From sequence record OK428535.1: a DNA stretch of 64,000 nucleotides, one strand, 5' to 3'. Shown in pieces: positions 13,074-30,815 of this stretch; position 1 is the stretch's first letter; the number at the start of each line of letters is the position of its first letter. The position numbers and the translations under genes are program-made. This stretch comes from Escherichia phage vB_EcoM_Lh1B. The notes under the pieces were generated by a model, which saw only the letters and a program-made list of their open reading frames with translations, searched no databases and had not been told where the DNA came from.

Positions 13074-13094
13074 TGCAGGTTGCTCCAGTATTTT

Positions 13095-13982
13095 TTAAAT
13101 ATAATCAATGGCGAATAAAGGATCTTCGTCTACGTTAGCGCCAGGCACCAGTAACATCGGGTCGTGATAGGCAGCTAAAATTTTGTTCAGGTCGGCGTGT
13201 CTTTCGTTCAGACGTTTCAAATCGGCCAACGTTACCGAACGACCACGAATCTCAGAAACAGCTTCTGCTTCTTCTTTCGTTAAATCCACCTTCGTTAAGA
13301 GGAAACTTACCAGCTTACTCAAATCCGCTTCTGTCGCCGGGTAATCCCCATATCGGGTTTGAACCAGGTGTTGCATCCACGGCTTACGAATACGTTTGGT
13401 GATTTCAAAATCGTCAGTCAGCGCATACCAGACAGAACGCTTTTTATCCCACACGAACTTATAGCTATACGCCATCATGTCCGCTAAACGGGTGATGCCG
13501 AGTTCTTTATACCCCTCGATATCGATGTATGGTTCGGTGTCGAAATACGTTTCCGTATCGGCAGGTACCAGTACAAAGTAGTAAGGGAACGAGCCCAGAT
13601 AGTCCGGACTCCACCAACGGCGCGCCATCGGTTTTGCTTCAAGTTCGTCAAACGGTGTAAACATCAGTTCTAAATCGACGCTGTTGTTCAAAATCCCTTC
13701 GCTGAAGAAATACTTACCGTCGACTAACACGCCACGAGAGTTACCATCGCCGTTAAAGATAACGATGGCCTCTGCAACCATATCACGGATCTTAAACGTA
13801 TTTTCTACGGTGTAGTTCTTCTTGTCGGTCAAGAAGCGACCACGAACCTTTGGCCACTCACCAGGAATCTGTGCAATCAGTCTGACTTTGTCAGCAAGGT
13901 GCGCACGCACTGAATCTGGGGAAGATAGATGCAGCGGGTGGTTGAATGTGGTTTTATACGCAAGATGCAAATCGTTTTTCAT
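13095..13982 (-). CDS. hypothetical protein co-operonic with rSAM enzymes
   Basis: 295-aa ORF with GGAG RBS immediately after the peptide genes; no motif recognised. Confidence 0.55.
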   Translation of the reverse strand: MKNDLHLAYKTTFNHPLHLSSPDSVRAHLADKVRLIAQIPGEWPKVRGRFLTDKKNYTVENTFKIRDMVAEAIVIFNGDGNSRGVLVDGKYFFSEGILNNSVDLELMFTPFDELEAKPMARRWWSPDYLGSFPYYFVLVPADTETYFDTEPYIDIEGYKELGITRLADMMAYSYKFVWDKKRSVWYALTDDFEITKRIRKPWMQHLVQTRYGDYPATEADLSKLVSFLLTKVDLTKEEAEAVSEIRGRSVTLADLKRLNERHADLNKILAAYHDPMLLVPGANVDEDPLFAIDYI

Positions 13983-14004
13983 TTAATACTCCGAACGTTT
14001 TCTG

Positions 14005-14211
14005 TTATCGATTCCCCGCTCCACGGCTACAGCTTCCGCTGCAGGACCAGCTACACCCACCATTACAGTTATAGTGAGAAAGCGGTAAGCCAGCCAGGTT
14101 ATTTGTGGTCGACACGGTGCCCTGGTTAGCGATATAGTTGTTTGCCTGTGCGGTTGTAATGTAACCTTCTACCGTAACGAGACGGTTTCGAATAGTCTTG
14201 AGACTGATCAT
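14005..14211 (-). CDS. Cys-rich peptide, short paralog (leader + truncated core)
   Basis: 68 aa; leader MISLKTIRNRL... and core SHYNCNGGCSWSCSGSC are paralogous to the two larger peptides; GGAGG RBS. Confidence 0.55.
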   Translation of the reverse strand: MISLKTIRNRLVTVEGYITTAQANNYIANQGTVSTTNNLAGLPLSHYNCNGGCSWSCSGSCSRGAGNR

Positions 14212-14226
14212 ATAAGCCTCCGTCAG

Positions 14227-14631
14227 TTAGGAGTTAGGACCTGAACAACCACCAGAACACGCGCCGGAGCAGTTTGCGGAACAGGATTTGCCACAGCCGC
14301 CAGAGCAGTTACCAGTACACGTTCCGCTACAACCACCAGAACATGAAGAGCTGCAACCCGTACAGCTGCTGCTACAGCCCGATACACAGTTTGCGGAACA
14401 AGTCGACCCACAACCACCCGTAGCAGACCCAGTACACCCGCCAGAACAACTCGAGCAACTAAAAGAGCATGTGCCACCACAGTCATAGTGCGAACGGCCT
14501 TGACCTGCGAACAAGTCGGCGTTATTCGTAGCTTTATTGCGAATGTAGTTTTGCACATTCGTGGTGTTCTTTAAAGCGTTTGCATCGATCGTGTTTAATC
14601 GGTTATTCAGTTCTTTTAATCCAATTGCCAT
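14227..14631 (-). CDS. Cys/Gly/Ser-rich repeat peptide (candidate rSAM substrate)
   Basis: 134 aa; about 45-aa helical leader (MAIGLKELNNRLNTIDANALKN...) followed by an about 85-aa core of CSGGCSG-type repeats with more than 20 Cys. Confidence 0.65.
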   Translation of the reverse strand: MAIGLKELNNRLNTIDANALKNTTNVQNYIRNKATNNADLFAGQGRSHYDCGGTCSFSCSSCSGGCTGSATGGCGSTCSANCVSGCSSSCTGCSSSCSGGCSGTCTGNCSGGCGKSCSANCSGACSGGCSGPNS

Positions 14632-14641
14632 TTAATCCCCC

Positions 14642-15034
14642 TTAGCGACCTGAACAGCCGCCGGNGCAGGCCCCGGNGCAGTTTGCGGAANAGNAGCCNC
14701 CNCAACCNNCTGAAAAGTTACCGGTACAGCTACTACTGCAACCACCAGAACAACCAGAGCAACCAGAACAGTTACCGCCACACGTCGAAGAACAGCTACC
14801 GATACAAGAAGCAGAACAGCTTCCTGAACAGCTCGAACAGCCATGCGAGCAACCGTTAGAGCANGTCCAAGAACATGTCCCGCCGCAATCTAGCTGTGCT
14901 TTCGTCCAACCCCCAAATCGGTCTGCTGCATTATGGGCTTTAGAGGCCACTTGCGCCTCGATGCGGGGGCCTGTCGCCATGTTAGCTTCGACNATCTGGA
15001 CGCGGTTTCTGACGTCTTTAATAGATATCGCCAT
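14642..15034 (-). CDS. Cys/Gly/Ser-rich repeat peptide (candidate rSAM substrate)
   Basis: 130 aa; same leader/core architecture (..LDCGGTCSW.CSNGCSHGCSSCSGSC..); AAGGAAG RBS. Confidence 0.65.
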   Translation of the reverse strand: MAISIKDVRNRVQXVEANMATGPRIEAQVASKAHNAADRFGGWTKAQLDCGGTCSWXCSNGCSHGCSSCSGSCSASCIGSCSSTCGGNCSGCSGCSGGCSSSCTGNFSXGXXGXXSANCXGACXGGCSGR

Positions 15035-15099: not shown

Positions 15100-16302
15100 T
15101 TACTTAGTACCCGCTTCAGCTTGAACATCGTCGCGCGAGGTGAGGCTGTTGTTGACGTGAACAGCAGCCTGCACAACACCTCCATACTGTTTATGGAGGT
15201 AATTCGGGTGTGGGTTATCCGCAGCCGCATGGTTCGCCAGATTCTGGTTTGCCTGCGAAATTGCGTTGGTGTTGTTTATAACCTGAGTTTTAAGACTGTT
15301 GATTTGTCCTTGCAGGTTATCAATTTGCTGTTGGAAGTCTTTGCCCTGATTCTCAAGATCCGTGACGCGCTGATTTGTTTCATTCAGTGCAGACTGAAGA
15401 TCGTTAACCATCTTCTGTAATTGCAACACCAGAGAATTAAGGTTAGCTAATGCTAACGACATTTTCTGGTAATTTTGAGCAACCACGTTAAGCTGGTCGT
15501 TCCACGCGGCTAACGAAGCCACAATTGCATCGATGCGTTGCCCCAACGCCGTGTCTGCTNCTCTTAAGTCGCCGATATCGTTGATAGTGGCGTCAATGGC
15601 AGTCTGTACACTTTGAATCAGGGCACGAATCTCCGTCTCCGTCAGGCCATTAACCTGATGAATGTCGAGATTGTGTACGTTACCTTCGGCGTTGATGTGT
15701 GTATTTAAGGCGTCGAGGAAGTCGTTTCTCAGACCGTCCAGAATACCTTTAATTTCTTCCAGCTGTACTGCAGAGCCGGAGTTAATCGCATCTTTAATCC
15801 CCGCGAGTACGGTAATGATATACTCAAAACCGTAGATATCGCCAAGGTCTTTATACGTCGGGGCGGACGGGAACGTATCGGGTACGTTTCGAAGATCCTT
15901 GAAGTCCACCACACGGTCTTCAATTTTCAGCGACGCAATCGCTTGTCGGATGCCTTCGACGTTCGCGGACTGAAAACCACCAACGACTTGCGCAGAGACT
16001 TCGATATCAGTAGGAATGGCCGAGTTAGTTACCACCACACCCATGACCACTTCGCGGTTCTTGGTCATTTTCTGATATGCAGTATGTGCAAAAATCAGTT
16101 CGTAGTCTGTGCCGCGTTTGTACGGGTAGACACCTGGTTTATTCGCAGCTGCCAAGCGGAAGGTATCCGCGTAGAAAGCTCCGTCAGGAAAAGCAAAAGC
16201 CCGGTTAACTTTACCAGAACCTAACGTAATACGCCGTGTAACGGCGTTCGACGTTAATGTCCCGGTAAGGTCGAGCGGGTACTGATGAATGATTTCGGCC
16301 AT
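15100..16302 (-). CDS. short fibre-like protein: N-terminal tail-attachment domain plus coiled coil
   Basis: ATG at 16302 with AAGGAG RBS; N-terminal PxGxFY...RGTDYEL motif shared with the three large fibre proteins; long heptad-like Q/N/L-rich segment. Confidence 0.65.
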   Translation of the reverse strand: MAEIIHQYPLDLTGTLTSNAVTRRITLGSGKVNRAFAFPDGAFYADTFRLAAANKPGVYPYKRGTDYELIFAHTAYQKMTKNREVVMGVVVTNSAIPTDIEVSAQVVGGFQSANVEGIRQAIASLKIEDRVVDFKDLRNVPDTFPSAPTYKDLGDIYGFEYIITVLAGIKDAINSGSAVQLEEIKGILDGLRNDFLDALNTHINAEGNVHNLDIHQVNGLTETEIRALIQSVQTAIDATINDIGDLRXADTALGQRIDAIVASLAAWNDQLNVVAQNYQKMSLALANLNSLVLQLQKMVNDLQSALNETNQRVTDLENQGKDFQQQIDNLQGQINSLKTQVINNTNAISQANQNLANHAAADNPHPNYLHKQYGGVVQAAVHVNNSLTSRDDVQAEAGTK

Positions 16303-16349
16303 TGCCAAACTCCTTTGATTGGGGCTTCCTTGCCCCATAGCGCTATCTG

Positions 16350-19300
16350 TTAGGTACGGAACATAAGATTGACCTGGATAATATCAGGCTGTTGACGTCC
16401 TCTCTCGTTCACCCAATCGTGTGCAATCGTTAACGTAAGATCATCGCCTTCCCACGACACGATCGGTGGTGGGAATAAACCCTGAGCGCCCGTGGTAACA
16501 ACCGGGATTGCACCTGCCACATTCGTAAACGTATAGCTACGACTGTTCAGAACAACCGGTGTGCCGTGGGTCTCTCCCGGCTGTGGTAAGATTTGAATCT
16601 TACTATCCGAAAGATCGGTGGTGATTGGTAGACCCCCAGCGTCCGTGAAAAGCCAAGAGCAAATATNCTGGTTNGCTGTTTCGAGCGCTGAAGAACTCTT
16701 CACAGCCGCGAAAGTAAAGGTGCACGGCACGCCTGCTGGCAGAGAGTGCTGTTTGTGGTGCACGGTATGTGGTGACGGCAATAACACTTCTGGATTTTCG
16801 TCAATGTTAACATCCGTACCTTCCGCCTCGACGTTGTAGAAAAAGCCATCCACCGCCTCCCATGGGGCAACGTGGACATTAAAGGTCGTTTCTACTCCCG
16901 GTGTACCTGGGACGACGAATTTACTTTGCACCACCACCATCATAGTTCTTGAGGTCGGTGAGAAAGCGGGCGTTGGAATACCTACCCACTCCATTCCCAA
17001 CGATGCCGCTTCACCGTTCTCATCAGCCGTTACCGTCGCGATTGTTGTAGGATGTTTCCAAAACGCCCCCGACTTGTTTGCCTGAGTAAACGCCGGCAAA
17101 GTTTTCAAGCCTTCGAAACGTTTGGACACCATCGCTTTACCGCGACGCTGTGCGTCAGATACGGTATAAAGCAACTGACTATCCAGATAGCCTTTCGTAG
17201 CATCGATCGACAAAGGACCCATCGCTTCTTTACGCAATGGTGCCAGTCTGCCCGTTGCTGCATCCCTTCCCACTTCCACATCATGCTTATTCTCAACCGC
17301 CGCATGTTCCAACAGTTGTTTCACCGCCCCCAATCGCTTAGCATGTTCGACGTTAGTCTCGACGACTCGTGACGAGCCCGTTTTAACATACCCGATATAG
17401 AGTTCCGTTTCAGTGTCTGGATGTTGAATCACGTCCATTACGTACTTCGGTGTACCATTTTCTACCTTGGCGTGCAGGTAGAATGTCCGGTTCTGATGGT
17501 TTGTTGGAAATGCTGCGCTGAGGTCAATATACCACGTAGGCAGCTTATAAGTGCTCGAGCCGAAACGCAGGTCAACTTCCTCAGTCACATATACCAGCCA
17601 ACCTTCGGCTGTTTCCACNCCAGCAATGACGACCGATTCAGTCGGGCCACTAAAATTAGGAGCCGCGACAAAATCACTCGACGACATTGCGATACCACCA
17701 CAATAGACGTAGTCGAGAGATGAGTTGTGTAGCATCACCTGATCACGATGAGCCAGATAAGCTGGGCTGACTGGAGTGTGTGATGGTGCCATGCGTCCAA
17801 TGCCGTGTGGAGCAGAAGAACGCGTCCAGGTACCATTAGACAGCGTAAGACCAACACCGTAGTTAAGCGCACCCAAGTCGCCAATTTGGCGCAAGGTTAA
17901 CGTGTGTGGAAGATACAACCCGAACTGCGTACCATCTACTGACACCAGTGTAGGTTGTCCCGGCCGGCGTGTTTTTCCTCCCGTTATCTCACCCAACGTA
18001 GCATAGTTCAAGCCATAGTCGAGGTTGTTATAGAAGTCAAACAATGCCAATATCGCTGCCGGGAATGTTACCTGCCCGTTACTGATTGTTGGTTTCAGTG
18101 TAAAGTAGTAGATATCCAACAAGTTAACATTGTTCACAGTACGCGTACATGCTACTTGTGCTAACGTGAGCGGTGTGGCCGTACCAATGCCGATGAACCA
18201 AATGGAGAACAGTGCCTTTCCGGCGTTATTTGCGGCAAGGATAAATTCCGAAGCATAACCATTCGCAGCGCCAGCCGGTGCGCCGTCGATAATCATCTGC
18301 TTCATCTTATCCCATTCGGCTTGTGACAGCGTCAACCGATCGGCATGAATCGTGAAAGTGCCAGAAACGTTGTGGTAAGGGAATGTTTCTGGTCCTGTGC
18401 AATACCAGCCGTTTAACTCTGTACCAGGCGACGCCGGTGTAACAATGTGGCACATCTGCGACAGATTCTCGTACGTGGTAGAATCTACTACACGACGATT
18501 GTTAGTTGGTCCATACCCCGCTTTACCTGAATAAGTGGTGTTCGGATCAAACTCAACTTCAATTGCCAAACGGGTACGCGGCTGTGACAACCAGATAAGT
18601 CTGGAATTCGCTCCCAGAGTCAGCGGATACGCCATGCCCAGCTCGTAGATAGAACCACGACCTTGGTTTAACATTACCGCACTAAAACTTCTGGCAGTGA
18701 AGTTGTAGTCGCACGACAGGTACTCGTACCAACTCACACCGTCATCTAACGTTGTAATCGTGACATAAGGCATTAGGTCGCGATCGCCTGCATGTCCTTG
18801 CGAAACGATATACTTGTCTTGCGATGTTGCAAAGGTTCGGTTATTAGCTTGACCTTCGCCCCATTTCCGGCTCGGAATCCCAATCTCAGCGCCACCGTTA
18901 TAACGAACCGTGGTAAGATCGGCCACAATAGGGAATCGATCAGCACCTTCCAGCGTTATCGTCATTGAACTACAATCAACAACAAAGCTTGACACCCATT
19001 GTTTAAAGTTAATAGTTTGCCCTGTAGTAGAAGCAAACCAAACCGTTGGAGTTAAACCAACACGAAAGTTCAGCCCATCCACACCAATCGCGTGATTACA
19101 TTCCGGACCATGGACAAATTTCGTCGCACTATTCCACTTCGCCGATGCGTCTGCGTAGATTTGTGTTACTGGCGCTACCAACACATCTGTATCAGAACGN
19201 TTCTGACCCTGACGCAAGTAGATATTATCTCCCGACGTTAACATCCCACCTGTTAACACATCCGCCACAAACGTGTTGCTACCACCCAGATTAAGTTCGT

Positions 19301-21533
19301 CGAGTGCGATGCTACGCATACTCACGAAATAGTCACCGGAGGTAAGCACAGTACGGAGCAGATAAACCCGCTCGTTGCAAACGATCAAATCGTTTGTTGA
19401 TGGATCAACAACCCATGGAGCGGTTGTAACTGACACCGGCCCGTTACCATTTCGGTAATCGCCCAACTGAACTTTAACAACACGATGATGTTTTGCATGG
19501 TCAATGGTGCCGTCAAAGATGACCAGGTAGTACGCACCGTCACTGCCTAAGCAGATCATTGCATCTGTACCGGTAATCACAATAGCAACCAGATTCACCC
19601 CAGGATACGCCGACATTCCAGCGGGTCGATAACGTACGGACGTCTGCTGCATATTTTCCAGCGTATTGCTTGGCGACACATCAGCATAGGCGTAATAGAT
19701 AGCCCAGTCACCTGGTGGATTCCCGTTAGAACCATTACGGAGCGAGTAAACCTTACCAGACTCGTAACGCGCCAAACCTTTCTGCCAGGTTTGGTTTTTG
19801 GTATACCCTTCGTAGTTCCCCTGGACAGGTATAGGCAAGAAGTTATTGTTGCCGTACGATGATCCGCCGACAGTCCATGCGGGCAACAGCGTAGCAATCT
19901 TGTCATTCAGTGTGTCAATCTTTTGTTCAAGCAAGAAGCCCTGACGCGAAGTGACCATCTTATCCGAGGTAGTGTCGATTGCATCCCACAGTTTAGCCAA
20001 ACCTGTAACAGACGTGGATGCGTACGGCACGTTATCGAGATCTGCAATGGTGTGGGTGTGCGTTGTAAGCGCTTTGCCTGATAGCACGGTGCGCAACGCA
20101 TTAGTAACCGGTTTCTCCAGCGGCCCGGTATTGTTCATCTTCTCAATACCGAAATCTGCCGCGGTTAAGGTCAGATGCATCTGCCCGTTTGAATCTAATA
20201 CAAACCCTTTACCATTGACTGTATACGTGTCGTCCACATATCCGTCGAGTTTGTTCTTCAAGTCAGTAACAGCTTTTTGGGAAATCGCTGTGGANGCCGC
20301 AGCGGACGCCGAAAGGTTAGTAATCGCAAACAAACCCTGCACAGTTGTGGTTGCTGCAGGCAGCTCCGCATTCATGTAAACTTTGTTTGTTTCTTTACCA
20401 GAGCCGTAAATCTTCAACGTGTCGCTGGACTTGAAGTAGGCGTTTGCTGGAAGTATCTTCACCGAGGTCAAGTACATCTTAACCATATCCGGTGTAACGA
20501 GATACACGCTGTTATACACAGGTGCAAGCACACCTGCATCATAAGCGCCCCACTTGTCACCTGCTTTACCCGAGTGAACCCAAAGCGTGTTCAGACCAGC
20601 ACTGAACTCCGTAGCGATACCCGGTTCGTTGTTATCCCGGTCAGCTTTTAATACCAGCGGTTTTGTCGAGGTGATAATGAACTTCTCACCCTTCATGCTG
20701 ATAACGTGACCAGACGTTGTTTGGAACGTAATCGCGTCGTTATTCAGAACACGCATACGGCCCAGTAAATCGCCCAGGGTATTATCCAGAAGCATGTCAA
20801 CGTGTTTCTGTTGGATGCCACTGGTAGACATTAACGTCACTAACTCTGCCAGTGTACGTCCAAACGCTTTAGTCGCATCCACGGCCTTACCGAGCACAGG
20901 GAGTGCGCCAATGTCACCGCAGGTGTAACCATGTGCATTTTTAATCAGGTGGTGTTGATACATTTCGTCATCAAACACCTGTTTACCGTTCTGATAAATC
21001 AAATCGGTAACTTCGGCAAATGCCTCATCCAGTTCGTGGGCGCGCTCTAAAATACCCAGACGGATATCTTCCAACGCCTTTACGATTTCATCGCGAAGAA
21101 TCGCTTCTTCGAGATCTTTTGGCGGGTCGATTGGCGAGATAATCGGTGGATATTTCATCAGCTCAGACCAATCGCAGTTGCGCGGGTCTTTCATATCCGT
21201 CTTAACCAGATACTTGCCGATTTCAGAAGCAGGGATGCGGTACTGTCGACCAACCGACAACAACTCGTATTCTACCTCTGTGGCGTTCAGCAGCATTATG
21301 CTGCCGTATATTGCATCGTTCTCAGCCTCGGCTAATTCCTGGAAGTAATGTCCTAAGAAATAATCAAGACCTTCTATTAACTTGCGTTTGGTTCCGGTTA
21401 TTTTATCGGTAACGGTTAACGTTAACCCGATGCGATAGAACGGTGCTTCGACGGGAATGACCGTCGAATAACGGTTCGGGTAAGTAGCGGTACTGAGGGT
21501 ACCGTTAAACTGCGCCGCATCTTCTCTCGGCAT
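16350..21533 (-). CDS. tail fibre protein (about 1727 aa)
   Basis: Giant ORF; ATG at 21533 with AGGAGT RBS; N-terminal anchor motif (PFY...GLDYF) shared with the other fibre genes. Confidence 0.7.
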   Translation of the reverse strand: MPREDAAQFNGTLSTATYPNRYSTVIPVEAPFYRIGLTLTVTDKITGTKRKLIEGLDYFLGHYFQELAEAENDAIYGSIMLLNATEVEYELLSVGRQYRIPASEIGKYLVKTDMKDPRNCDWSELMKYPPIISPIDPPKDLEEAILRDEIVKALEDIRLGILERAHELDEAFAEVTDLIYQNGKQVFDDEMYQHHLIKNAHGYTCGDIGALPVLGKAVDATKAFGRTLAELVTLMSTSGIQQKHVDMLLDNTLGDLLGRMRVLNNDAITFQTTSGHVISMKGEKFIITSTKPLVLKADRDNNEPGIATEFSAGLNTLWVHSGKAGDKWGAYDAGVLAPVYNSVYLVTPDMVKMYLTSVKILPANAYFKSSDTLKIYGSGKETNKVYMNAELPAATTTVQGLFAITNLSASAAXSTAISQKAVTDLKNKLDGYVDDTYTVNGKGFVLDSNGQMHLTLTAADFGIEKMNNTGPLEKPVTNALRTVLSGKALTTHTHTIADLDNVPYASTSVTGLAKLWDAIDTTSDKMVTSRQGFLLEQKIDTLNDKIATLLPAWTVGGSSYGNNNFLPIPVQGNYEGYTKNQTWQKGLARYESGKVYSLRNGSNGNPPGDWAIYYAYADVSPSNTLENMQQTSVRYRPAGMSAYPGVNLVAIVITGTDAMICLGSDGAYYLVIFDGTIDHAKHHRVVKVQLGDYRNGNGPVSVTTAPWVVDPSTNDLIVCNERVYLLRTVLTSGDYFVSMRSIALDELNLGGSNTFVADVLTGGMLTSGDNIYLRQGQXRSDTDVLVAPVTQIYADASAKWNSATKFVHGPECNHAIGVDGLNFRVGLTPTVWFASTTGQTINFKQWVSSFVVDCSSMTITLEGADRFPIVADLTTVRYNGGAEIGIPSRKWGEGQANNRTFATSQDKYIVSQGHAGDRDLMPYVTITTLDDGVSWYEYLSCDYNFTARSFSAVMLNQGRGSIYELGMAYPLTLGANSRLIWLSQPRTRLAIEVEFDPNTTYSGKAGYGPTNNRRVVDSTTYENLSQMCHIVTPASPGTELNGWYCTGPETFPYHNVSGTFTIHADRLTLSQAEWDKMKQMIIDGAPAGAANGYASEFILAANNAGKALFSIWFIGIGTATPLTLAQVACTRTVNNVNLLDIYYFTLKPTISNGQVTFPAAILALFDFYNNLDYGLNYATLGEITGGKTRRPGQPTLVSVDGTQFGLYLPHTLTLRQIGDLGALNYGVGLTLSNGTWTRSSAPHGIGRMAPSHTPVSPAYLAHRDQVMLHNSSLDYVYCGGIAMSSSDFVAAPNFSGPTESVVIAXVETAEGWLVYVTEEVDLRFGSSTYKLPTWYIDLSAAFPTNHQNRTFYLHAKVENGTPKYVMDVIQHPDTETELYIGYVKTGSSRVVETNVEHAKRLGAVKQLLEHAAVENKHDVEVGRDAATGRLAPLRKEAMGPLSIDATKGYLDSQLLYTVSDAQRRGKAMVSKRFEGLKTLPAFTQANKSGAFWKHPTTIATVTADENGEAASLGMEWVGIPTPAFSPTSRTMMVVVQSKFVVPGTPGVETTFNVHVAPWEAVDGFFYNVEAEGTDVNIDENPEVLLPSPHTVHHKQHSLPAGVPCTFTFAAVKSSSALETXNQXICSWLFTDAGGLPITTDLSDSKIQILPQPGETHGTPVVLNSRSYTFTNVAGAIPVVTTGAQGLFPPPIVSWEGDDLTLTIAHDWVNERGRQQPDIIQVNLMFRT

Positions 21534-21546
21534 TGCAAACACTCCT

Positions 21547-21592
21547 AATCTGTAATAAAACGGAGACCGCCCTCCCAATAACGGAAGGGCGG
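21547..21592 (-). terminator. intra-operon terminator/attenuator
   Basis: Hairpin CCGCCCTCC...GGAAGGGCGG followed on the minus strand by TTTTATT, between the 1376-aa and 1727-aa fibre genes. Confidence 0.4.
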
Positions 21593-21628
21593 TTTACCTA
21601 CGGACTACCCGCCCGTAGGCAGTCCGTC

Positions 21629-24600
21629 CTAAGAGGCCCACTCACCCGAGTTGTTGCCTTCGTTTCTACGTTCAGTATCCAACGTTTGTAAAATCCAATC
21701 CCATGTCCTGGTGGGGATGTGGAATGGATTACGCTTCTCAATGAGAATCGTCTCGCCACCCGTGCGAAGTTCCACCGGTGTCGTTTCAGTAATCACGAAC
21801 ATCGGATTACCACTACTACCCACACCGTTAATAGTGAACTTCGCTTGTAGCGGCGGCACAGAACCTTCCGGAGGCACGAACACGATGTGAATTGGCTGCA
21901 TCGGTTTCGTGCGGGCAAGAGTCCCAGATATCTGAACAGCTGTTGTCGATGCACTGAAAGGTATAACATTACCCGGAATTTTCTCACTACCCACGACGAT
22001 ATATCCAGGGTAGTTAGAGAGCATTGTCCCATTTACCGACACAAAACGCTCAGTTTGAGTTGGGCGATAAGCCCGCATAAAGCCGTACTTCCATTCACCA
22101 CCGTTAGACGTATAGTCTGCAGGAGCCGACTCAAGTAGCGGAGCACCACGTTTCTGCAGCCCTTTATAAAACGGCGCTGGGAGTTTACCGTTCGGTGCAA
22201 GTTCCGGATAACCCTCACTTGCAGCAGACATCGTGATGTATTCCGTAACCGGGTGATCAACGTTATCTCCAAATGACGCAAAAGGTACCGTTGTTACTGT
22301 CATCTCCTCGTGGCCGGAAGACTGTCTATCTGGTGTCCTTTCAATATACGACTCAAACAGTGAACGTAAATAATGGAAACGATTTATATCCACATCTGAG
22401 ATGATCGGCTGCATCAAACCGTGGTTAATAGTCACGTTGTCTCCAGTTTCAATACCGGAAACGTGGATGGCTAGCGCCCCACCTTTAAAGTAATCGATCG
22501 CATCAAACGGAATGTCGTATTCCATTTCGTAAACCTGCACCAGCGGATTGGCTATCAACTTAGAAACCATTGAGATGCGCAGTACCTGCGTATCAACAAT
22601 GTATCGATAACGTACAAGCCAACGATCTCCAAGCGGCGCAAGCTCACTATCGGTATGAACCGAAAGAAAATCTAAACACTCGGTAGATTGGCTCGTCAGG
22701 TTTTTAATTACCCTCGGATTTTCAAGCACCTTATTTGTAACACTGCCCTGCGTGGTCGAGATGATGCCTCCAGTTGCTTGGTTATAAGGAGACGTGATGA
22801 AGCCACAATTCAATTCTGGACGATTGCCACTCCATCTCAGTACCCTAGTCTTGCTTTTATCATCTGCAGACGGGGCCATGAAGTTTAATGTGATATCGCG
22901 ATCGCGAACAGTTTGCGCTTCCGACAAATCAACATCGACCACCACAGAACCTTCAAACGTCGCCATCCCTTTTTCTTTCGGGTTGCTTGGTGTAAACCAG
23001 CAGTACGGTGATGCGCTTTCTGTGGAGACAACCGCTCCAACAAACACTAGGCTTGAAATGGTGCTATCAAATTTATAATCGAATAACCCTCGGTCTAATC
23101 GAATATAGTGGTTACCAGAAACTGGACTATTAGGGTACGCATAAAGCCACTGTTTAGGCAACGGATCGACTTTGTTTAGCGGTAACATTTTTGGGTTATC
23201 CGTCAACGACCAGTCGGCATTACTCACTCCGTGTGCCAGACGTGTTTCGAAGTGCCGTTTAAGTTCGGACGCCATGCCAAAATCAAACGTCGTTTCAAAC
23301 TCGTAAGTCGTACCTGCAACCAATCCCGTCTCTGGTACATCAATATGTCCGATATAGCCGCGTTCCAAGTTAATACCTTCCGTGTCCACAATAGGTTCGG
23401 CGCGCGAATATAACGCATCGGTTATCATGTTCACATAGAGGTAATGCCTTAAACCATTCGGCGTCTTAACAAACTCCTGCAGGCGGGCAACTTTGGTGTT
23501 TTTATCCGAGGCCCCAACCGCAAAGTCACCGTCGTAAATTGTGAAACGAATTGCGGCTGCTTTAGCGCTATCGTTACACTCGGCACGGAATGCTAAGCAG
23601 TGTTGCTTCCACCCCTCCTTGACAGTCGCCTCCAGATACCCCGCTTCTGTAATACCCGCACCGATAATTTCACCGTCCAGATAAACAGAAACAGCACCAC
23701 CGCCACGAACCCAAATCCGCAGCTTACCAGAGTCGCAACGAACCCACGTTTTCGCCAAGAGGTTAACGACTGACAAATCACCCATTCCGGTTGTCGTTAA
23801 ACCAATCTGCGCACCGTAGTTCGTTTCCGGGACGGCAACCTCAAACCCACTAAAATCAATACCGGCACCGGTATTAATTACCGCGTTCTGCCACGTTCTT
23901 TCCATACGGTTATCTGGAGAGAACCACTGGAACATCGGTGTGGTTTGCAGGTCTATCGAACCAGATACCGTCCCCTCTTTACGTGCGCCATTTAACAGAT
24001 AGAAATAATTCAAATCCGTTATGGCGAGTGTGGTACGTGCTGACCCCACAGTCCAAGTCTTACCACGCACAGCGGCAAAATCGGTCACGGAATCCTCTTT
24101 CGCGTTTGCTAGCGCAGCTGCAACTACGTCTAAACGTTTTGACAAATCGTTCAGAACGTTCGGGGTAACGCCGCGATTACCCGACAAGCCGTTTAGGTTG
24201 GTAGAATATCGAGCGATACCGGGAACTGTTTGAGAAGCCGTTGGGATCTGTAAATCGGCGAAGTTGTGATGATGGCCTTTATCGCTAAGACCGGTAACTG
24301 CTTCTGCCAACGCATCAGAAAGTGGTTTATCGACGTCAGCTGTGTTATCAGCCAAGTCCAGACCCAAATCCTTTTTCGTTAGCGTTCGGCTACCAGTGTC
24401 CATCGGCTGGTTATTCAGCAGCGTTGTCTTCCTGACGTACGAAGACAGATCACCCTCGTACGGTAAGAGCGAAGCTGGGGTGGCTGCTTGTCCTTTGACT
24501 ACATCGCTCGGCTTATCAGTCAGCGTCACAACGCCGGGTTCAGAGGTCGTGGCGGGTTTGGCTGTAACCTTCCCGGTGACGGGATCGGCTTTTGACCCTT

Positions 24601-25759
24601 TGCCCGTGAAAGTAATACCGTTCACCCCGCTAATGTACAGTTTGTTGTCATCCGGGTCAACGGTACCGCCGCCGGTACCAGGGTCTTGTTGATAGCCCAT
24701 GAGAGCGGTGGTGGTCAGCAACGTTGTTCCGTTAAGTGTCAGCTTATCCATCCCCAAGGCACTGCCGGTTGACTCAATACGTAACGTATTGATGCCTGCT
24801 TTCCACTCCATAAACCGGACGGTTCCAGTAGTGTCAGCATACCCACACGCCAGCACGACAGAGCCATTAGATTTAAGAGTGAATGCCTCAGCAGAGAACA
24901 CAATTTCGGATTCGCCAGCAGGAGAACGGAACAGGGCACGAGTACCAGATATCGTCGCGTTAAACACCCCTTTGGATTCTTTCGATACCCATTTAGAAAT
25001 GTACTTGTCGATATCCGATTGTTGCAGGCCCAGTGCACGGACCTCGCTGGTTAATTGACGCAACGTCTTTCCATACGCCAGGAAAGTATCTGGCGTTTTC
25101 AGGTTGACAGGATGCGCCCCGGCCTGCGCCGCGGTAGTCCCATGAGGGTTAGTGGACGCAATGTGTCCGGGGTAGTTAAATGTGGCGATTTCAGTTCCTA
25201 AGCCCAGAACCGTATCTTTCAGCTCGGTAAGCTTTTCACGAATCTGCTCGTTGGCCGCCCCGGCATCTAACTCCACATCATGCACTGCAGAGGCAACATA
25301 CTTTTTATTCAGCATGTCTGACCAAGCTACCGCTGCGGGGGTGGCTGGGTACAGGGAAGGTCGATTACCTAAAAGCAGCCAATCTGCAGCCGTTGGATTG
25401 TTGAGAGCCTTAATTAACTCATCCAACATCTCAATCAGACCACTGTAAAACGTACCCCCGAGCATCTGGCCTTCAAAGACCACTGCACCACGCAGTTTAG
25501 GGTTAATAAGATGCACCCCACAGAACACCGGGGTCGTCACCGAGTCGTCCAACGGCGTTAAAGCATACTCCAGCTCATAGTCCGTCCCGCGGGTAAGCGG
25601 TATGGTCGAGCCGGCGAGCATTACCACCAATCCTTCGAAAAATGGGCGATGATCTAGCATCACCACCCGATCGTTAGGATTGTCGGAGTCGATGATACGT
25701 TCCTCGATGAAGTGACACTCGGGATTTACACCCCGAGGATCGTAAGGATACGTTTTCAT
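21629..25759 (-). CDS. tail fibre protein (1376 aa)
   Basis: Giant ORF with AAGGAG RBS; N-terminal PFFEGLVV...RGTDYELEY anchor motif. Confidence 0.7.
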   Translation of the reverse strand: MKTYPYDPRGVNPECHFIEERIIDSDNPNDRVVMLDHRPFFEGLVVMLAGSTIPLTRGTDYELEYALTPLDDSVTTPVFCGVHLINPKLRGAVVFEGQMLGGTFYSGLIEMLDELIKALNNPTAADWLLLGNRPSLYPATPAAVAWSDMLNKKYVASAVHDVELDAGAANEQIREKLTELKDTVLGLGTEIATFNYPGHIASTNPHGTTAAQAGAHPVNLKTPDTFLAYGKTLRQLTSEVRALGLQQSDIDKYISKWVSKESKGVFNATISGTRALFRSPAGESEIVFSAEAFTLKSNGSVVLACGYADTTGTVRFMEWKAGINTLRIESTGSALGMDKLTLNGTTLLTTTALMGYQQDPGTGGGTVDPDDNKLYISGVNGITFTGKGSKADPVTGKVTAKPATTSEPGVVTLTDKPSDVVKGQAATPASLLPYEGDLSSYVRKTTLLNNQPMDTGSRTLTKKDLGLDLADNTADVDKPLSDALAEAVTGLSDKGHHHNFADLQIPTASQTVPGIARYSTNLNGLSGNRGVTPNVLNDLSKRLDVVAAALANAKEDSVTDFAAVRGKTWTVGSARTTLAITDLNYFYLLNGARKEGTVSGSIDLQTTPMFQWFSPDNRMERTWQNAVINTGAGIDFSGFEVAVPETNYGAQIGLTTTGMGDLSVVNLLAKTWVRCDSGKLRIWVRGGGAVSVYLDGEIIGAGITEAGYLEATVKEGWKQHCLAFRAECNDSAKAAAIRFTIYDGDFAVGASDKNTKVARLQEFVKTPNGLRHYLYVNMITDALYSRAEPIVDTEGINLERGYIGHIDVPETGLVAGTTYEFETTFDFGMASELKRHFETRLAHGVSNADWSLTDNPKMLPLNKVDPLPKQWLYAYPNSPVSGNHYIRLDRGLFDYKFDSTISSLVFVGAVVSTESASPYCWFTPSNPKEKGMATFEGSVVVDVDLSEAQTVRDRDITLNFMAPSADDKSKTRVLRWSGNRPELNCGFITSPYNQATGGIISTTQGSVTNKVLENPRVIKNLTSQSTECLDFLSVHTDSELAPLGDRWLVRYRYIVDTQVLRISMVSKLIANPLVQVYEMEYDIPFDAIDYFKGGALAIHVSGIETGDNVTINHGLMQPIISDVDINRFHYLRSLFESYIERTPDRQSSGHEEMTVTTVPFASFGDNVDHPVTEYITMSAASEGYPELAPNGKLPAPFYKGLQKRGAPLLESAPADYTSNGGEWKYGFMRAYRPTQTERFVSVNGTMLSNYPGYIVVGSEKIPGNVIPFSASTTAVQISGTLARTKPMQPIHIVFVPPEGSVPPLQAKFTINGVGSSGNPMFVITETTPVELRTGGETILIEKRNPFHIPTRTWDWILQTLDTERRNEGNNSGEWAS

Positions 25760-25771
25760 TCAAAAATCTCC

Positions 25772-28700
25772 TTAATCACGAATAATAAGTGTTCGACCTG
25801 ACGTGTTTTTCGGATTGAACGTCATCATCTTGGATGGGTGCGCCGCCGGTGGAATTTTACCTGTATCCACTGGTCGGAACGAACTGTATGAATAGTTGCA
25901 CATCGCGCTGTTCATCTCATTAATCGTTGAACCTGCATCCACCACGCCAGTAAAGAATCTTGCGCGGTTTAAGCCGGAATAGTTAATCGCATAGTCAAGG
26001 AACGTGGCGTAATAACGATTCTTTGTCGGCATCGTGTTCAGGTTAGCGTAAGTCAAACGCGCTTCTGTGTCGGAACTAAACAAACCACCCACGCCGTGAT
26101 AAATCGGCGTACTCGGATCGGTAATCAGTTTCGTCAAGTCGATATAGTCAGGACGGAGACGGGTAGACAAATCCTCAGTCCACGACTCGCCGGTCGACTG
26201 CAAGGTGTATTTCAGCGTCTTTGTTGTCGCGGTTAGCGTCAGCTCAAAGTTGATCGTTTTGGAATCGATGTTAATCGTTCCCACGAACGAAATACCGTCC
26301 GCTGTTCGCGCGTGGCTGAAACGCACCGATGGATTAAGTGCCGTCCAGTCATGGCCGGAACCAGTGACGCCGTTCAAGCCAATAACAACCTGTGCAGCAC
26401 GTCCGTAGTTAACCGCGATTCCCGCATACGTGCTCACGCCGCCTGGAGTGGTAATACGCCCTGCGGTGCGTGCGACGAGTACAGAAATACGGTGCATGAA
26501 CGTGGCCGAGTGATGGCAACACCCAATTACCGTTTCTAGCACACTGTCCGCTGTTGCGGTTAAAGGTGTCCACGTCGCGGTAATGCCGTTATTCTGGAAC
26601 ATCGGGAATGTGTTGTGGACAAAACGATAATNGGTTACAGATAAACTGGTTGTTTTAAACGTCCATTTATCAGCAGCCGGATCGTAGTCCGCTTTCAACA
26701 TAGGCGTATAGCTGCTAGCCTGCGCGTAACGCCAATCGGCATCTATACGTTTTGTACCCGGTGCACCCGTGGACCACACAGGCCCGCCCGTACCGTAAGT
26801 AAATCCGAAATCAGCTTGCGTCATGCCCCGACGAATATGGGCGTTATCATCCTCGATATGCTCGCCTAATTCACGGAACTCACCTAAACGCGTCACGTTG
26901 CGGATTTCTACAAAAACCACACCGGTTTCACTGGTGACGATGGAACCTATTTTGGTCATCGTCTCAGTTTCTGCCGTGTTTGGATTTTCGTAGATAATGT
27001 ACTTGCCATCATNGCCCGCCGCGTCAACATACACGCCAAACTCGGCATCTTCGTGCGTCGCTGGGAATAGCTCAGCCAAGTTAAATGTGGAGAGAGGTAC
27101 TTTGTACTCGCGACCAACGAAATAATCGTTCGCTTTAATAGTAACCATCCAGTCGGTGTAAGTGATGCCGTTTTCAATGATATCCGTGCCGGGTAAACCG
27201 TAACGAATAATGTTGATTGAAGCACCAGAGTCGACTGTCTTCGCAACCTTCTCTATCTCTGTGATGGCGTCCGCCTGTCGGATGACCTCAGCGCCGTCTA
27301 ATGCCAGCGTGGCATCGTCAACCGCGGTGCCGAACTGTACTAAACCGAACTCCGTCGTTGTTGCACGCTTAATCCCGAGCGCATCAGGAGTGTGTGTGTG
27401 ACCGACGACTGCATACTTGTCCAGCTCAGCTCGTTGGAGCGGGGAAATCGGCAATTGCACATCTGGGATGTTCTGTACGTTCGATAAGCCGAAGTTAGTT
27501 TTATCGATGTAAATGGAACNCGTCAGCGGCATGTCGTTGATGTACGATTTAACGGCAACCAACTTGCCCGTAAACTGCTGATCCAATTTCTTGATGAGTG
27601 CCGGCGTTGCGGCCAAGTCCTCACGATCACCGAATTCAGTAGCCAACAAACGGACAGCCATCAGGCCAAGGTCATCGGACTCCGGTGGAACAAAAGTACA
27701 AATGAACGGAACAGACTGAATACCGTTACCGTTAATGGTTACAGTAGCTGTGGATGTTCCGTAAAACAGTCCATCACCACCCGACTCGTTACCCGGCAGG
27801 TACGGCCCGACCGTAGTAGGGTCCAACAGTTTCTTACCGTTGAACTCCAATCCACGGGAATCCGGATAAAGGATGAGTTGGTTAGCCCCACCTTGCCATG
27901 TAATCGGATTGTTCCCGGCGTTAACGGTTTGCGAATCGCGTCCAATAAAACGNATAACCCTCGGGTCAACCGTAAATTGTGCACCCACGCCTTCAGACTC
28001 ATCGGTACCCACTGCCGACGTTATTGAAGTCAGGCCAGGCTTCATGCCGAACGTGCCGTTGATAGACTGTGCAGCCGTCGGTAAACGTAAAAGCTTATTC
28101 GCCAGCGCTGACAGTTTCGGCAACAGATTGTTAACGTAATCTGTCAGCTGCGGTTGCGTTTTTCCGTATACCAGTGTCGCGTCCGAAGCAATACCGTTAT
28201 TCTCCAAAGCACGGATTGCGCCCCACGAATCGCGATGCGGGTTATCCTTGCGCGGCACGTGTGTGTGTGCCGGTGCATCACGGTACAGTTTATCGACAAT
28301 CTGGTGATATTTTACCAGCAGCTGGTACACGTCATTGTTAACGTCAGGTGACGGTGCGCCTGGTAATGAACGAATCTGGACGTAATCGTTCTCACCCGCC
28401 CACCAGTTTAGGTTGACGCCCGATTTAAACTTCAACCATTTAGCGACATCAGTTTTCTGATACCCTGGTGCAAATTCGCTCGGCGGGTTGTCAACGTTAA
28501 AGCTGTAGTTAACGGTTTGCTTGCTTGTTTTAACGGTGATGTCGTAAATGCCGTTACCTTCGCGTCTGACCACGCTAAACTCAACCTCACCCGCCAACTC
28601 GGCATCGGTCAGGCCAGTCGTCAACGTATAGCTGTAATTAGACGAACCGGAACCAATCGCTGTCGTTAAGGTAAGATAAATCGCGCGTTGCTTCAACTGA

Positions 28701-29485
28701 AGACGCAGGATACTTGCCCCACCGTTTGCGTAACAGAGCATCCAATCGATCAACTCGCCTGGATTCAACGTTGTTTCCGGTGGAATGCTCGGTAAACGGT
28801 ATTTTACCGCTAACGAATACGCACCGAACGTCGTGTTCTGGTAAGATAACGAATAACGACGACGCGACGCGTTATACGTGTAGCCGCCAGTACCGTCGTA
28901 CGTCGCATACTGCTCGGATGTGATAAGCGTGACACCGGCGCGATATTGAAGGTCTAACGTGTTACGAGCAATCGGGTCAACGCGACTGATCGCTTCACCG
29001 AGCTTAGCACCAACCGCAACAATGGCTTCCATCAACTCGGATTCGCCACGCCAGTTTTCCCAGTCGAACTTAATATCGACCGGTGGGAAATATAAGTCCC
29101 CAATGACGTTATCCCATTGGCAGTCTACGGGATAGCGATCTTTATTCGCTTCTCGTTCTGCGGCGATCATTTCTGCAGTGGCTTCACCGATGCCAATTGC
29201 GTGGTAATCGAGTGTAAAGCCACTCTGATATTTCGGGTTGGTAATCCACACGCCGCCGTGACAAACATGGCCAGTGCGTGCCATGCCCGTAACGTACGCA
29301 TGGGTGATGACGTAATCATCACCTAATGTTAATTTCTTGCCGCCACTCTTGACCACCAGGGATGTGGTATAAAAGGGGGCGTGTGCGGGGAACAGCATCC
29401 GGTACTTAGTACCGATCGGCGTTACCGCTTCACCGGTCTGCATATTCCCCGGTTCTTGATAGTGCGGGTCAGGGACGACAGCCAT
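25772..29485 (-). CDS. tail fibre protein (1237 aa)
   Basis: Giant ORF with AAGGAG RBS; N-terminal APFYTTSLVV...LGDDYVITH anchor motif; first gene of the minus-strand block. Confidence 0.7.
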   Translation of the reverse strand: MAVVPDPHYQEPGNMQTGEAVTPIGTKYRMLFPAHAPFYTTSLVVKSGGKKLTLGDDYVITHAYVTGMARTGHVCHGGVWITNPKYQSGFTLDYHAIGIGEATAEMIAAEREANKDRYPVDCQWDNVIGDLYFPPVDIKFDWENWRGESELMEAIVAVGAKLGEAISRVDPIARNTLDLQYRAGVTLITSEQYATYDGTGGYTYNASRRRYSLSYQNTTFGAYSLAVKYRLPSIPPETTLNPGELIDWMLCYANGGASILRLQLKQRAIYLTLTTAIGSGSSNYSYTLTTGLTDAELAGEVEFSVVRREGNGIYDITVKTSKQTVNYSFNVDNPPSEFAPGYQKTDVAKWLKFKSGVNLNWWAGENDYVQIRSLPGAPSPDVNNDVYQLLVKYHQIVDKLYRDAPAHTHVPRKDNPHRDSWGAIRALENNGIASDATLVYGKTQPQLTDYVNNLLPKLSALANKLLRLPTAAQSINGTFGMKPGLTSITSAVGTDESEGVGAQFTVDPRVXRFIGRDSQTVNAGNNPITWQGGANQLILYPDSRGLEFNGKKLLDPTTVGPYLPGNESGGDGLFYGTSTATVTINGNGIQSVPFICTFVPPESDDLGLMAVRLLATEFGDREDLAATPALIKKLDQQFTGKLVAVKSYINDMPLTXSIYIDKTNFGLSNVQNIPDVQLPISPLQRAELDKYAVVGHTHTPDALGIKRATTTEFGLVQFGTAVDDATLALDGAEVIRQADAITEIEKVAKTVDSGASINIIRYGLPGTDIIENGITYTDWMVTIKANDYFVGREYKVPLSTFNLAELFPATHEDAEFGVYVDAAGXDGKYIIYENPNTAETETMTKIGSIVTSETGVVFVEIRNVTRLGEFRELGEHIEDDNAHIRRGMTQADFGFTYGTGGPVWSTGAPGTKRIDADWRYAQASSYTPMLKADYDPAADKWTFKTTSLSVTXYRFVHNTFPMFQNNGITATWTPLTATADSVLETVIGCCHHSATFMHRISVLVARTAGRITTPGGVSTYAGIAVNYGRAAQVVIGLNGVTGSGHDWTALNPSVRFSHARTADGISFVGTINIDSKTINFELTLTATTKTLKYTLQSTGESWTEDLSTRLRPDYIDLTKLITDPSTPIYHGVGGLFSSDTEARLTYANLNTMPTKNRYYATFLDYAINYSGLNRARFFTGVVDAGSTINEMNSAMCNYSYSSFRPVDTGKIPPAAHPSKMMTFNPKNTSGRTLIIRD

Positions 29486-29552: not shown

Positions 29553-30815
29553 ATGACTACTGCTTATCAAGTGCGGGCCGACAGCGCTTTTGGCTTCTCT
29601 CGAGACACCCGAACTTGGGGAACCATCGATGTCACGCAGCCCTTAAATACCCTTTGTGCTAACTACCACTTTTTCGAAGTAGGACTAGAAGCACTAGGTG
29701 CTGAATACACCTTCTATAGCCAGTATCACCTGGCTGATTTACAAAACCGTACGGACACGTTGCAAGATTGGTTAAACACCAANNCAGGAACCCCGATTCC
29801 CACGCTTGGGAAGGGCCTNCCGAANCTCNAATTNNTTGNGGCANATTACCAGTCTATTAATGCAGATGTGCCCGTAGAAACGCACCTGTGCCCTCCTGGG
29901 TACCACTACACTCAGGACTTCAATCCTGATGATGCACACGACGTTGTTGTAGTCTGCGACGATGAGTGGAAAGAGAAATACCGTACTGGGGTACTGTACA
30001 ACATCAACGGTCAATGGGTACCGCACCAATCTGACCCAGTGGGTGTTCGCTTAACCGGCGCTGGTAACATCGTGCGGAGAGCCAACACACCCNACANCGG
30101 CNGTCTAGTGATGGCGAATATTGGTAAAGTGAAGACTTACCCCATATCCGGTTTAACGATGAACAAACTCGATACTACGCGAGATTACTATTCTTCGTTA
30201 ATGTTGACCTTACCCGATTCCATTACAGGGAAAACCGTTGGGTTCGTCATCGGGGGTATTCTGCATTGGTTGCCACCGCAGGGCTATTTCAGCGACCGTG
30301 CGATTATGCTGAGTCTGCCAAACCTTAGCGTGGCGAAGATTGTATTGGAAACCCGTCGCTATTACGATTGGGACGCCATCGGTGTAGGTGATTTAAGTAC
30401 GCCTACGTCCGTTCAACGTATTCGTAACTCAGAAACGTTAAAAGCGTTGCTGACGCACGAATCCTCGTTTATCTTTACGATAGACAACCCGTATCTCGAA
30501 AAAGAGATTCACGGAATAAGCCACAACGCTATCTGGGGCCGGTTCTATTTAAAAGACCCGACTGACCCAGATGGGAAGAAGACGCTAGGTCCTATCTTTA
30601 ACCGTATTGGTAAATGTGTAGGGTACTGGCCGACCTGGGAAGAAGGGGAGTGGGTCTTTAATACCACATTCTTCGACCGGGAAAACTTTTTNTTGGGGAA
30701 CGCACGTTGGTNTAACCAGAATTTGGNAAANGACNCNCAGGNAATNGNNGGGCCTTTCGGGGNTTGGGGTAAGCCGTTTNTTGAAATGCATCGCTACAAA
30801 GNAAGAAAAAAATAA
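29553..30815 (+). CDS. hypothetical protein
   Basis: 420-aa ORF with GAGGAA RBS, divergent from the fibre operon; n-rich at the 3' end. Confidence 0.55.
   Translation: MTTAYQVRADSAFGFSRDTRTWGTIDVTQPLNTLCANYHFFEVGLEALGAEYTFYSQYHLADLQNRTDTLQDWLNTXXGTPIPTLGKGXPXLXXXXAXYQSINADVPVETHLCPPGYHYTQDFNPDDAHDVVVVCDDEWKEKYRTGVLYNINGQWVPHQSDPVGVRLTGAGNIVRRANTPXXGXLVMANIGKVKTYPISGLTMNKLDTTRDYYSSLMLTLPDSITGKTVGFVIGGILHWLPPQGYFSDRAIMLSLPNLSVAKIVLETRRYYDWDAIGVGDLSTPTSVQRIRNSETLKALLTHESSFIFTIDNPYLEKEIHGISHNAIWGRFYLKDPTDPDGKKTLGPIFNRIGKCVGYWPTWEEGEWVFNTTFFDRENFXLGNARWXNQNLXXDXQXXXGPFGXWGKPFXEMHRYKXRKK

Follow-up and report, generated by a model that had tools for sequence, protein, structure and literature searches.

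Positions 15,100 to 29,485 of a 64,000-nucleotide stretch of Escherichia phage vB_EcoM_Lh1B (sequence record OK428535.1; the whole stretch is called the window below) encode four consecutive proteins, orthologous to gp170, gp169, gp168 and gp167 of Salmonella phage SPN3US and named after them here. All four begin with the same N-terminal module, which by sequence and profile comparison is clearly of the phiKZ gp131 type, and their genes lie beside that of gp171, a homologue of phiKZ gp130. The phage is a phiKZ-related giant myovirus (Chimalliviridae, Seoulvirus), and we consider it likely that these four genes constitute its peripheral tail-fibre set, whose products would dock beneath gp171 and assemble there together.

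The 14.4-kb stretch aligns over its whole length with 22 Seoulvirus genomes at 94.7-97.0% DNA identity (97.0% to Escherichia phage vB_EcoM_EC001, 94.7% to SPN3US), and the gene models match. For gp168 and gp167, the chosen starts are the ATG codons at 21533 and 16302, preceded by the Shine-Dalgarno sites TAGGAG and AAGGAG, in agreement with the orthologues and with the GenBank gene models. The window has 315 N characters, occurring singly or in short runs that are clustered and scattered across the 64 kb; they cause four X residues in gp170, six in the open reading frame (ORF) of gp168 and one in gp167. Each of the three long proteins has a full-length PHROG match of its own (gp170, phrog_7557; gp169, phrog_8078; gp168, phrog_7449).

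A common N-terminal module in these proteins had been proposed by a sequence-only reading of the window, and profile comparison bears it out in all six pairs. We built group profiles from each window protein and its orthologues in phages phiEaH2, CR5 and pVa-21 and compared those of the N-domains (first 175 amino acids, aa), obtaining HHalign probabilities of 96.4-99.4%, with E-values of 1e-9 to 7e-22 over 129-163 columns. The N-domains are mutually only 17-23% identical in a plain MAFFT alignment, and pairwise blastp connects some pairs only, yet their similarity at the profile level is far above chance. All four proteins match phrog_2163 (E-values 7e-14 to 9e-109), the strongest match being that of gp167, which extends over nearly its full length. 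Moreover, of the 369 ORFs of 60 aa or more that a six-frame translation of the window yields, a family hidden Markov model (HMM) picks exactly these four.

The motif on which the proposal was based, APF[YF]...L.V....L..G.DY.[IL], is visible in the alignments and forms the core of a larger unit. Instead of the 60-70 aa first proposed, the module consists of a beta-rich domain (about 110-160 aa) that a linker joins to a predicted alpha-helix, with an NPH-type motif around residues 200-210, that is, a domain of about 160 aa extended by the helix and the motif to about 215 aa in total. In an AlphaFold2 (AF2) model of the gp167 orthologue, residues 10-110 of the beta-rich domain are predicted with a predicted local distance difference test (pLDDT) score of 80-90. 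Helices, the element that makes up the six-helix bundle in phiKZ, are predicted after the domain at 159-175 and 178-204, at low confidence (pLDDT 43-59 for residues 150-200), and gp168, gp169 and gp170 align to the equivalent segment. Searching with the N-domain profile gave 3144 cluster representatives, of which 2156 have an E-value of at most 1e-10. Among the 150 matches listed, the domain is always at the extreme N-terminus, in proteins of 159-2164 aa. Of 49 diverse family members sampled, 11 end in the fibre chaperone Peptidase_S74 and two carry a phage tail Collar domain; PKD domains are also present among these relatives.

The relationship with phiKZ was detected by several methods. In blastp searches, all four proteins match the N-terminus of phiKZ gp131 or gp135 with 43-62 bits. 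The gp168, gp169 and gp170 group profiles match a small profile of phiKZ gp131, gp133, gp134 and gp135 with HHalign probabilities of 97.8-99.4%, and full-length profiles, including that of gp167, match single phiKZ proteins at 93-97% over 160-240 columns. Beyond the helix and the NPH motif (about residue 200-260), HHalign with full-length profiles detected no homology to the phiKZ proteins. The seven-bladed beta-propeller of phiKZ gp131 (PDB 4gbf) was matched by none of the four window proteins in sequence or profile searches; this includes gp170, whose N-domain is the closest to that of gp131 and for which a propeller was considered and rejected, as no profile evidence was found. The propeller does not define the wider family of gp131-like paralogs. 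For phiKZ gp131, the PDB holds only 4gbf (residues 374-771), which lacks the N-domain, and fold searches could not match the N-domain.

In gp171, homology to phiKZ gp130 extends over the whole protein (blastp E-value 2e-13 over 420 aa), and a PDB-wide phmmer search aligned residues 17-402 with residues 13-413 of PHIKZ130 (PDB 9xqd_L; E-value 2.4e-11). It has already been catalogued as an essential tail gene and a homologue of phiKZ ORF130 (PMC5105663). A divergent gp130-like gene followed by an array of N-domain paralogs was found in phiKZ, phiEaH2, CR5 and Vibrio phage pVa-21 (four paralogs each) and in Goslar (two). PhiKZ and the phage studied here have in common the homologous N-domain, predicted helix and NPH motif, as well as four N-domain paralogs arrayed beside a divergent gp130 homologue. 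The two sets differ in their proportions: phiKZ has one long and three short paralogs (about 460 aa), whereas the window encodes three very long proteins (1237-1727 aa) with a common shaft, and a short one.

What is known of phiKZ gives this arrangement a structural context. A 2026 cryo-electron microscopy atlas places the fibre-attachment sites beneath gp130 and describes a fibre base of six gp131-like N-domains and a six-helix bundle, with a candidate hetero-hexamer of three gp131 chains plus gp133, gp134 and gp135, and twelve fibres per virion (PMC13250141). Immunogold labelling located phiKZ gp131 at the baseplate periphery and on the fibres. None of gp131-135 received transposon insertions in phiKZ (PMC12676376). 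The homology suggests that in the window proteins, too, the N-module would be a docking and oligomerisation unit beneath the gp171 platform at the baseplate periphery, presumably with the same docking mode and a multi-paralog fibre base, in which six N-domains and a six-helix bundle contributed by different paralogs would form one fibre base. The three long proteins would continue from this base as homologous shafts carrying an HxH motif and then split into host-variable distal bodies.

The location of these proteins in the virion is documented in SPN3US, and the fibre system is already known from that phage and phiKZ. There, gp168, gp169 and gp170 form 'paralog family C' (Thomas et al., Front Microbiol 2017; PMC5694885), where their low abundance in the virion and their similarity to phiKZ gp131 were noted and they were named 'baseplate/tail fiber candidates'; a tailless SPN3US mutant lacks all three (PMC5694885). 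In an earlier study gp168 was listed as a tail protein 'expected essential' (Thomas et al., J Virol 2016; PMC5105663). Mass spectrometry also identified gp167 as a virion protein, to which no family or function was given (PMC5694885). In contrast to the published three-member family, we find that gp167 carries the same N-module. Its membership in the family is one addition made here; the others are the map of module boundaries, the shaft, the gp170 insertion and the conservation profile.

Downstream of the N-module, gp168, gp169 and gp170 have a second module in common, a shaft of about 350 aa (see table). Residues 20-515 of gp168 are colinear with residues 28-518 of gp169 (HHalign 99.7%), and gp168, gp169, gp170 and the CR5 orthologues all have an invariant HxH motif at the corresponding position of the shaft. 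These motifs resemble the HxH motifs of T4-type fibre shafts, which coordinate metal. The shaft of gp170 is displaced towards the C-terminus because about 200 extra aa follow its N-domain. This insertion, unique to gp170 (aa 165-385; approximately 28330-28990, minus strand), separates the N-module from the shaft. Over aa 200-400 it is 16-24% identical between the Salmonella and Erwinia phage orthologues, compared with 75-89% in the flanking blocks. The insertion is possibly a side domain that is exposed near the baseplate and faces the host. A third domain is common to gp168 (residues 1284-1417) and gp170 (residues 749-883; HHalign 97%). More modules are common to these proteins than the sequence-only reading had described.

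The conservation of the long proteins changes along their length. Apart from the gp170 insertion, their proximal 500-800 aa (approximately) are 55-89% identical to the orthologues of Erwinia phage phiEaH2, whereas their distal parts are 14-47% identical to the Erwinia and Cronobacter phage orthologues. Within gp169, a hot spot of variation between closely related phages (see table) is, judging from this pattern, likely to be a specificity determinant. An AF2 model of gp169 residues 560-1376 has a mean pLDDT of 63.6 and contains several all-beta domains at 70-90. Its Foldseek matches, with E-values of 5e-5 to 1e-2, are to PA14-containing proteins (6m8m, probability 1.00), to legume lectins (0.96-0.99) and to those sandwiches of GH2 and GH101 enzymes that bind sugars. 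With moderate confidence, the model suggests that the distal body of gp169 is a chain of lectin/PA14-like beta-sandwich modules. A beta-helix depolymerase fold, which the sequence-only reading suggested looking for in these C-terminal regions, is absent from this model, for which Foldseek returned neither a pectate-lyase-like helix nor a propeller. The bodies of gp168 and gp170 have no Pfam match and no sequence match in the PDB, and searches with the full proteins against PDB chains, by sequence or profile, returned nothing usable.

This pattern recalls fibres that have a common N-terminal anchor and exchangeable distal domains and are chaperoned by S74 or Tfa-type proteins, such as the T5 L-shaped fibre and the endosialidases; they likewise join a conserved proximal part to a host-specific distal one. 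In contrast to those fibres, none of the four window proteins contains S74, Collar or any other Pfam domain, S74 being found only in relatives within the family, and no Tfa-type chaperone gene lies inside the window fibre array. The pVa-21 array contains interleaved Caudo_TAP and tail-assembly-chaperone genes. In the window, the candidate closest to the array is the DUF4376 protein encoded at 9662-10333 (minus strand; E-value 1e-9), downstream of radical S-adenosylmethionine (SAM) genes; another gene at 7125-7766 (plus strand) is named 'tail assembly chaperone' in RefSeq and matches Pfam DUF1353 (E-value 1e-15). Either of these could be a fibre-assembly factor.

Overall, the view of the four genes as tail-fibre or adsorption proteins with a common anchor is supported; the part that made them four separately attached fibres is argued against below. 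The long three behave like receptor-binding proteins, in that their proximal halves are conserved and their distal halves diverge with host genus, and by analogy their distal bodies are the presumed receptor-binding parts. The multi-receptor adsorption put forward by the sequence-only reading is an inference; the only receptor reported for SPN3US is the flagellum (PMC11428620). As a separate observation, more than 100 gp169 homologues of 1392-1394 aa, 34-36% identical to it, were found, many of them on contigs of about 220-226 kb and some in NCBI assemblies that carry the label Salmonella enterica, E. coli or Shigella. This suggests that sequencing data of isolates often contain a jumbo phage of CR5/Derbicus size, whether in a carrier state or as a contaminant.

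The short member, gp167, agrees well with its initial description as an anchor plus a coiled coil. After the beta-rich N-domain described above, the AF2 model of its orthologue shows a helix at residues 222-360 and a conserved tail of 40 aa, and the identity profile is uniformly conserved across host genera. It lacks a distal domain, and its most likely role is structural, as a coiled-coil partner within the fibre base. Foldseek returned no match for this model at an E-value of 0.001 or less. Weaker matches fell on podovirus tail complexes (LME-1, P-SCSP1u, Kp7); the matched chains, about 170-190 aa long, are probably not fibres but adaptors or head-completion proteins, and they were not counted in favour of T7 gp17. 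Pfam matches to crescentin, XhlA and similar entries, all below the cut-offs, were discarded as coiled-coil noise. Two proteins with a gp167-type N-domain have additional C-terminal regions: Goslar gp25 (L009:19736-21784) ends in a Peptidase_S74 chaperone (E-value 1e-5, above the cut-off), and pVa-21 gp121 (L008:19509-20906) contains a Dermatopontin-like segment (PF14704; E-value 2e-9). Therefore, elsewhere the 'short' lineage does not always lack a distal domain.

By analogy with phiKZ, it is probable that the four proteins assemble together at the gp171 sites and do not build four independent fibres. The best matches of each window paralog are its positional orthologues in phiEaH2, CR5 and pVa-21 (90-300 bits), far ahead of the paralogs in the same genome (at most 25.5 bits). 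Each N-domain therefore represents an old lineage of its own that is not interchangeable with the others, and the gene order has stayed fixed, which is what non-equivalent places in a single complex would lead one to expect. The normalised spectral counts in SPN3US are mutually similar for gp168 (1.08), gp169 (1.41) and gp170 (1.00) and close to that of the 12-copy portal (0.93), with gp167 somewhat higher (1.90) (PMC5694885), albeit such ratios are too rough to fix a stoichiometry. Other considerations also weigh against co-assembly. The argument for it is drawn from a single system, phiKZ, whose fibre base consists of AlphaFold models in density low-pass filtered to about 6 Å and is called 'candidate' by its authors (PMC13250141). 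The paralog sets are not one-to-one, with one long and three short proteins in phiKZ against three long and one short here. Since the S74 chaperone, typical of homotrimers, is present in many family members, separate homotrimers are plausible. Finally, among the distal bodies, that of gp169 was modelled, with moderate confidence (mean pLDDT 63.6), and those of gp168 and gp170 lack matches. A more specific arrangement can be proposed, which we regard as speculative and rather doubtful: each docking site, of which there are probably twelve, would hold a branched hetero-hexamer made of a gp167 homotrimer, contributing three N-domains and a central coiled coil, and a gp168-gp169-gp170 heterotrimer, whose three shafts would run in register with their HxH motifs aligned before splitting into three giant lectin-like arms. 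If true, one fibre would present three specificities at once.

The picture drawn by the sequence-only reading, in which four independent homotrimeric fibres use the same adaptor domain in equivalent baseplate sockets and offer four alternative receptor specificities, seems to us unlikely. Multi-tailspike phages classically show this layout, in which divergent bodies are attached to a common N-terminal anchor, the invariant HxH of each shaft is compatible with homotrimeric metal sites, and the relatives ending in the homotrimer-type S74 domain (11 out of 49) include Goslar gp25, with its gp167-type N-domain; in addition, the phiKZ hetero-hexamer is a candidate model only. However, N-domains that are 17-23% identical, each in an orthologous lineage of its own that extends to a Vibrio phage, are unexpected for interchangeable plugs. 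Furthermore, each attachment site in the phiKZ density accommodates six N-domains together with a six-helix bundle, and there are only two kinds of site, nearly identical; the phiKZ paralogs all appear essential, which argues against redundant alternatives; and gp167 has no distal domain and is not host-variable. It is highly improbable that the four proteins are static outer-baseplate components, neither fibres nor receptor-binding proteins. Their listing in the SPN3US papers only as 'baseplate/tail fiber candidates', the PHROG label 'virion structural protein' and the purely structural appearance of gp167 are compatible with such a role. The divergence of the distal halves with host genus, the intraspecies hot spot and lectin/PA14-like distal domains of gp169, the S74, Collar and PKD domains of the relatives, the fibre chaperone genes within the pVa-21 array and the location of phiKZ gp131 on fibres as well as the baseplate periphery all argue against it.

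A further alternative concerns the origin of the module, which had been likened to the N-terminal domain of T7 gp17. Membership of the corresponding Pfam family (Phage_T7_tail, PF03906) is not supported by the searches: none of the four proteins matches it at an E-value of up to 1, nor do eight relatives (up to 0.01) or the 49 family members (up to 1e-4), whereas true T7 gp17 relatives all carry it. Small-profile HHalign comparisons with T7 gp17 gave probabilities of 0.1-1.3%. A deep profile of 161 sequences, compared with a 22-sequence profile of the gp17 N-terminal family, aligned with it weakly but colinearly at the extreme N-termini (its columns 11-84 with columns 2-58; probability 23%, P-value 8.9e-4). 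The score was 30.4; reversing the profile lowered it to 14.0, and 30 column shuffles reached 16.3 at most. The aligned stretch includes the motif of the sequence-only reading (Y.LDG ... L...TDY). The likeness thus has some basis, but homology is not established. Both proteins place a tail-attachment module with a similar short motif ahead of a variable fibre body. However, T7 is a podovirus whose gp17 docks on the gp11/gp12 adaptor-nozzle junction, whereas here docking involves a gp130-like platform on the baseplate of a myovirus. Moreover, only 55 columns are matched in a module that spans about 160-215 aa. That the N-module is a distant true homologue of the gp17 attachment domain and that the fibres attach as in T7 is, on this evidence, quite unlikely; an ancient relationship between the gp131-type N-domain and that of gp17 is a secondary possibility alongside the branched hetero-hexamer proposed above.

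Table. Features of the fibre locus and adjacent ORFs (positions in the window; gp numbers are those of the SPN3US orthologues)
Feature	Position	Strand	Size, layout or evidence
gp171 orthologue	29553-30815	+	420 aa; divergently transcribed; phiKZ gp130 homologue
gp170 orthologue	25772-29485	-	1237 aa; N-domain, insertion of about 200 aa (aa 165-385), shaft, divergent C-terminal body
gp131-like N-module of gp170 (aa 1-215)	28841-29485	-	HHalign, family HMM, alignment
Shaft in gp170 (aa 377-787)	27125-28357	-	NPH at 415, HxH at 696; HHalign 97.5% against gp168, 98.8% against gp169
gp169 orthologue	21629-25759	-	1376 aa; N-domain, predicted helix, shaft, distal beta-sandwich body (predicted)
gp131-like N-module of gp169 (aa 1-215)	25115-25759	-	HHalign, family HMM, alignment
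Shaft in gp169 (aa 164-518)	24206-25270	-	NPH at 204, HHH at 496; HHalign, motif alignment
Variable hot spot in gp169 (aa 900-1200)	22160-23062	-	61-64% identity to SPN3US, against 89-100% elsewhere in gp169 (100-aa blocks)
gp168 orthologue	16350-21533	-	1727 aa; N-domain, predicted helix, shaft, long divergent body
gp131-like N-module of gp168 (aa 1-215)	20889-21533	-	HHalign, family HMM, alignment
Shaft in gp168 (aa 174-585)	19779-21014	-	NAH at 199, HTH at 492; HHalign, motif alignment
gp167 orthologue	15100-16302	-	400 aa; N-domain, long coiled coil, conserved C-terminal tail
gp131-like N-module of gp167 (aa 1-215)	15658-16302	-	HHalign, family HMM, alignment, AF2
Cys/Ser/Gly-rich paralogous small ORF	14642-15034	-	130 aa
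Cys/Ser/Gly-rich paralogous small ORF	14227-14631	-	134 aa
Cys/Ser/Gly-rich paralogous small ORF	14005-14211	-	68 aa

Inside the fibre array, the gap of 95 nucleotides between the gp169 stop and the gp168 start contains a strong terminator-like hairpin (21593-21566, minus strand), whose 12-bp stem includes eight G-C pairs and is followed by a T-run. Immediately upstream of it is another GC-rich hairpin (gp169-gp168 gap, 21566-21625 region). These hairpins may act as an attenuation or mRNA-stability element within the operon. On the other side of gp171, the orthologue of SPN3US gp172 (30878-31087, minus strand; 69 aa) has the platform gene on one side and, on the other, a gene whose annotation is baseplate assembly protein. 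It matches the bacterial YdgH/BhsA/McbA-like (DUF1471) periplasmic family (E-value 2e-10) and has been reported as a 7-kDa virion protein in SPN3US (PMC5694885).

The position of gp167 directly upstream of Cys-rich peptide genes, pointed out by the sequence-only reading, was confirmed by the ORF coordinates. The three small ORFs that follow gp167 have a conserved leader-like N-terminus and CxxxC-type tails. They are succeeded by an ORF of 295 aa and two radical-SAM ORFs (12159-13073 and 10838-12166), all forming a minus-strand cluster at 10838-15034. The larger radical-SAM protein is most similar to NCBIfam TIGR04115 ('radical SAM peptide maturase, CXXX-repeat target family'; E-value 3e-36, below the cut-off) and also matches the ranthipeptide maturase PapB, and one of the Cys-rich peptides weakly matches TIGR04114. 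The cluster, which is kept beside the fibre array in phiEaH2 and CR5, looks like a phage-encoded system for ribosomally synthesised and post-translationally modified peptides. Comparison of the peptide leaders with segments of the fibre proteins revealed no similarity, with all matches at noise level. In SPN3US, gp166 is annotated (RefSeq/GenBank; 14223-14558, minus strand) as a Val/Ala-rich ORF of 111 aa, in another frame over the 134-aa Cys-rich ORF that is annotated in EC001. The frame of the SPN3US model is probably incorrect, in which case the Cys-rich peptides would have escaped any proteomic search against it.

Most Seoulvirus records label the four genes 'hypothetical' or 'virion structural protein'. 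An annotation as gp131-type fibre proteins is now possible, with gp171 as their gp130-type docking platform. The distal halves of the long proteins, especially the hot spot of gp169, are the places in which to seek host-range determinants in SPN3US-like phages for Salmonella biocontrol. Finally, given that an amber-mutant system exists for SPN3US, the SPN3US-type locus is genetically tractable and would offer a second system for asking whether jumbo-phage fibres are hetero-oligomers of paralogs, a question already raised by the phiKZ atlas.

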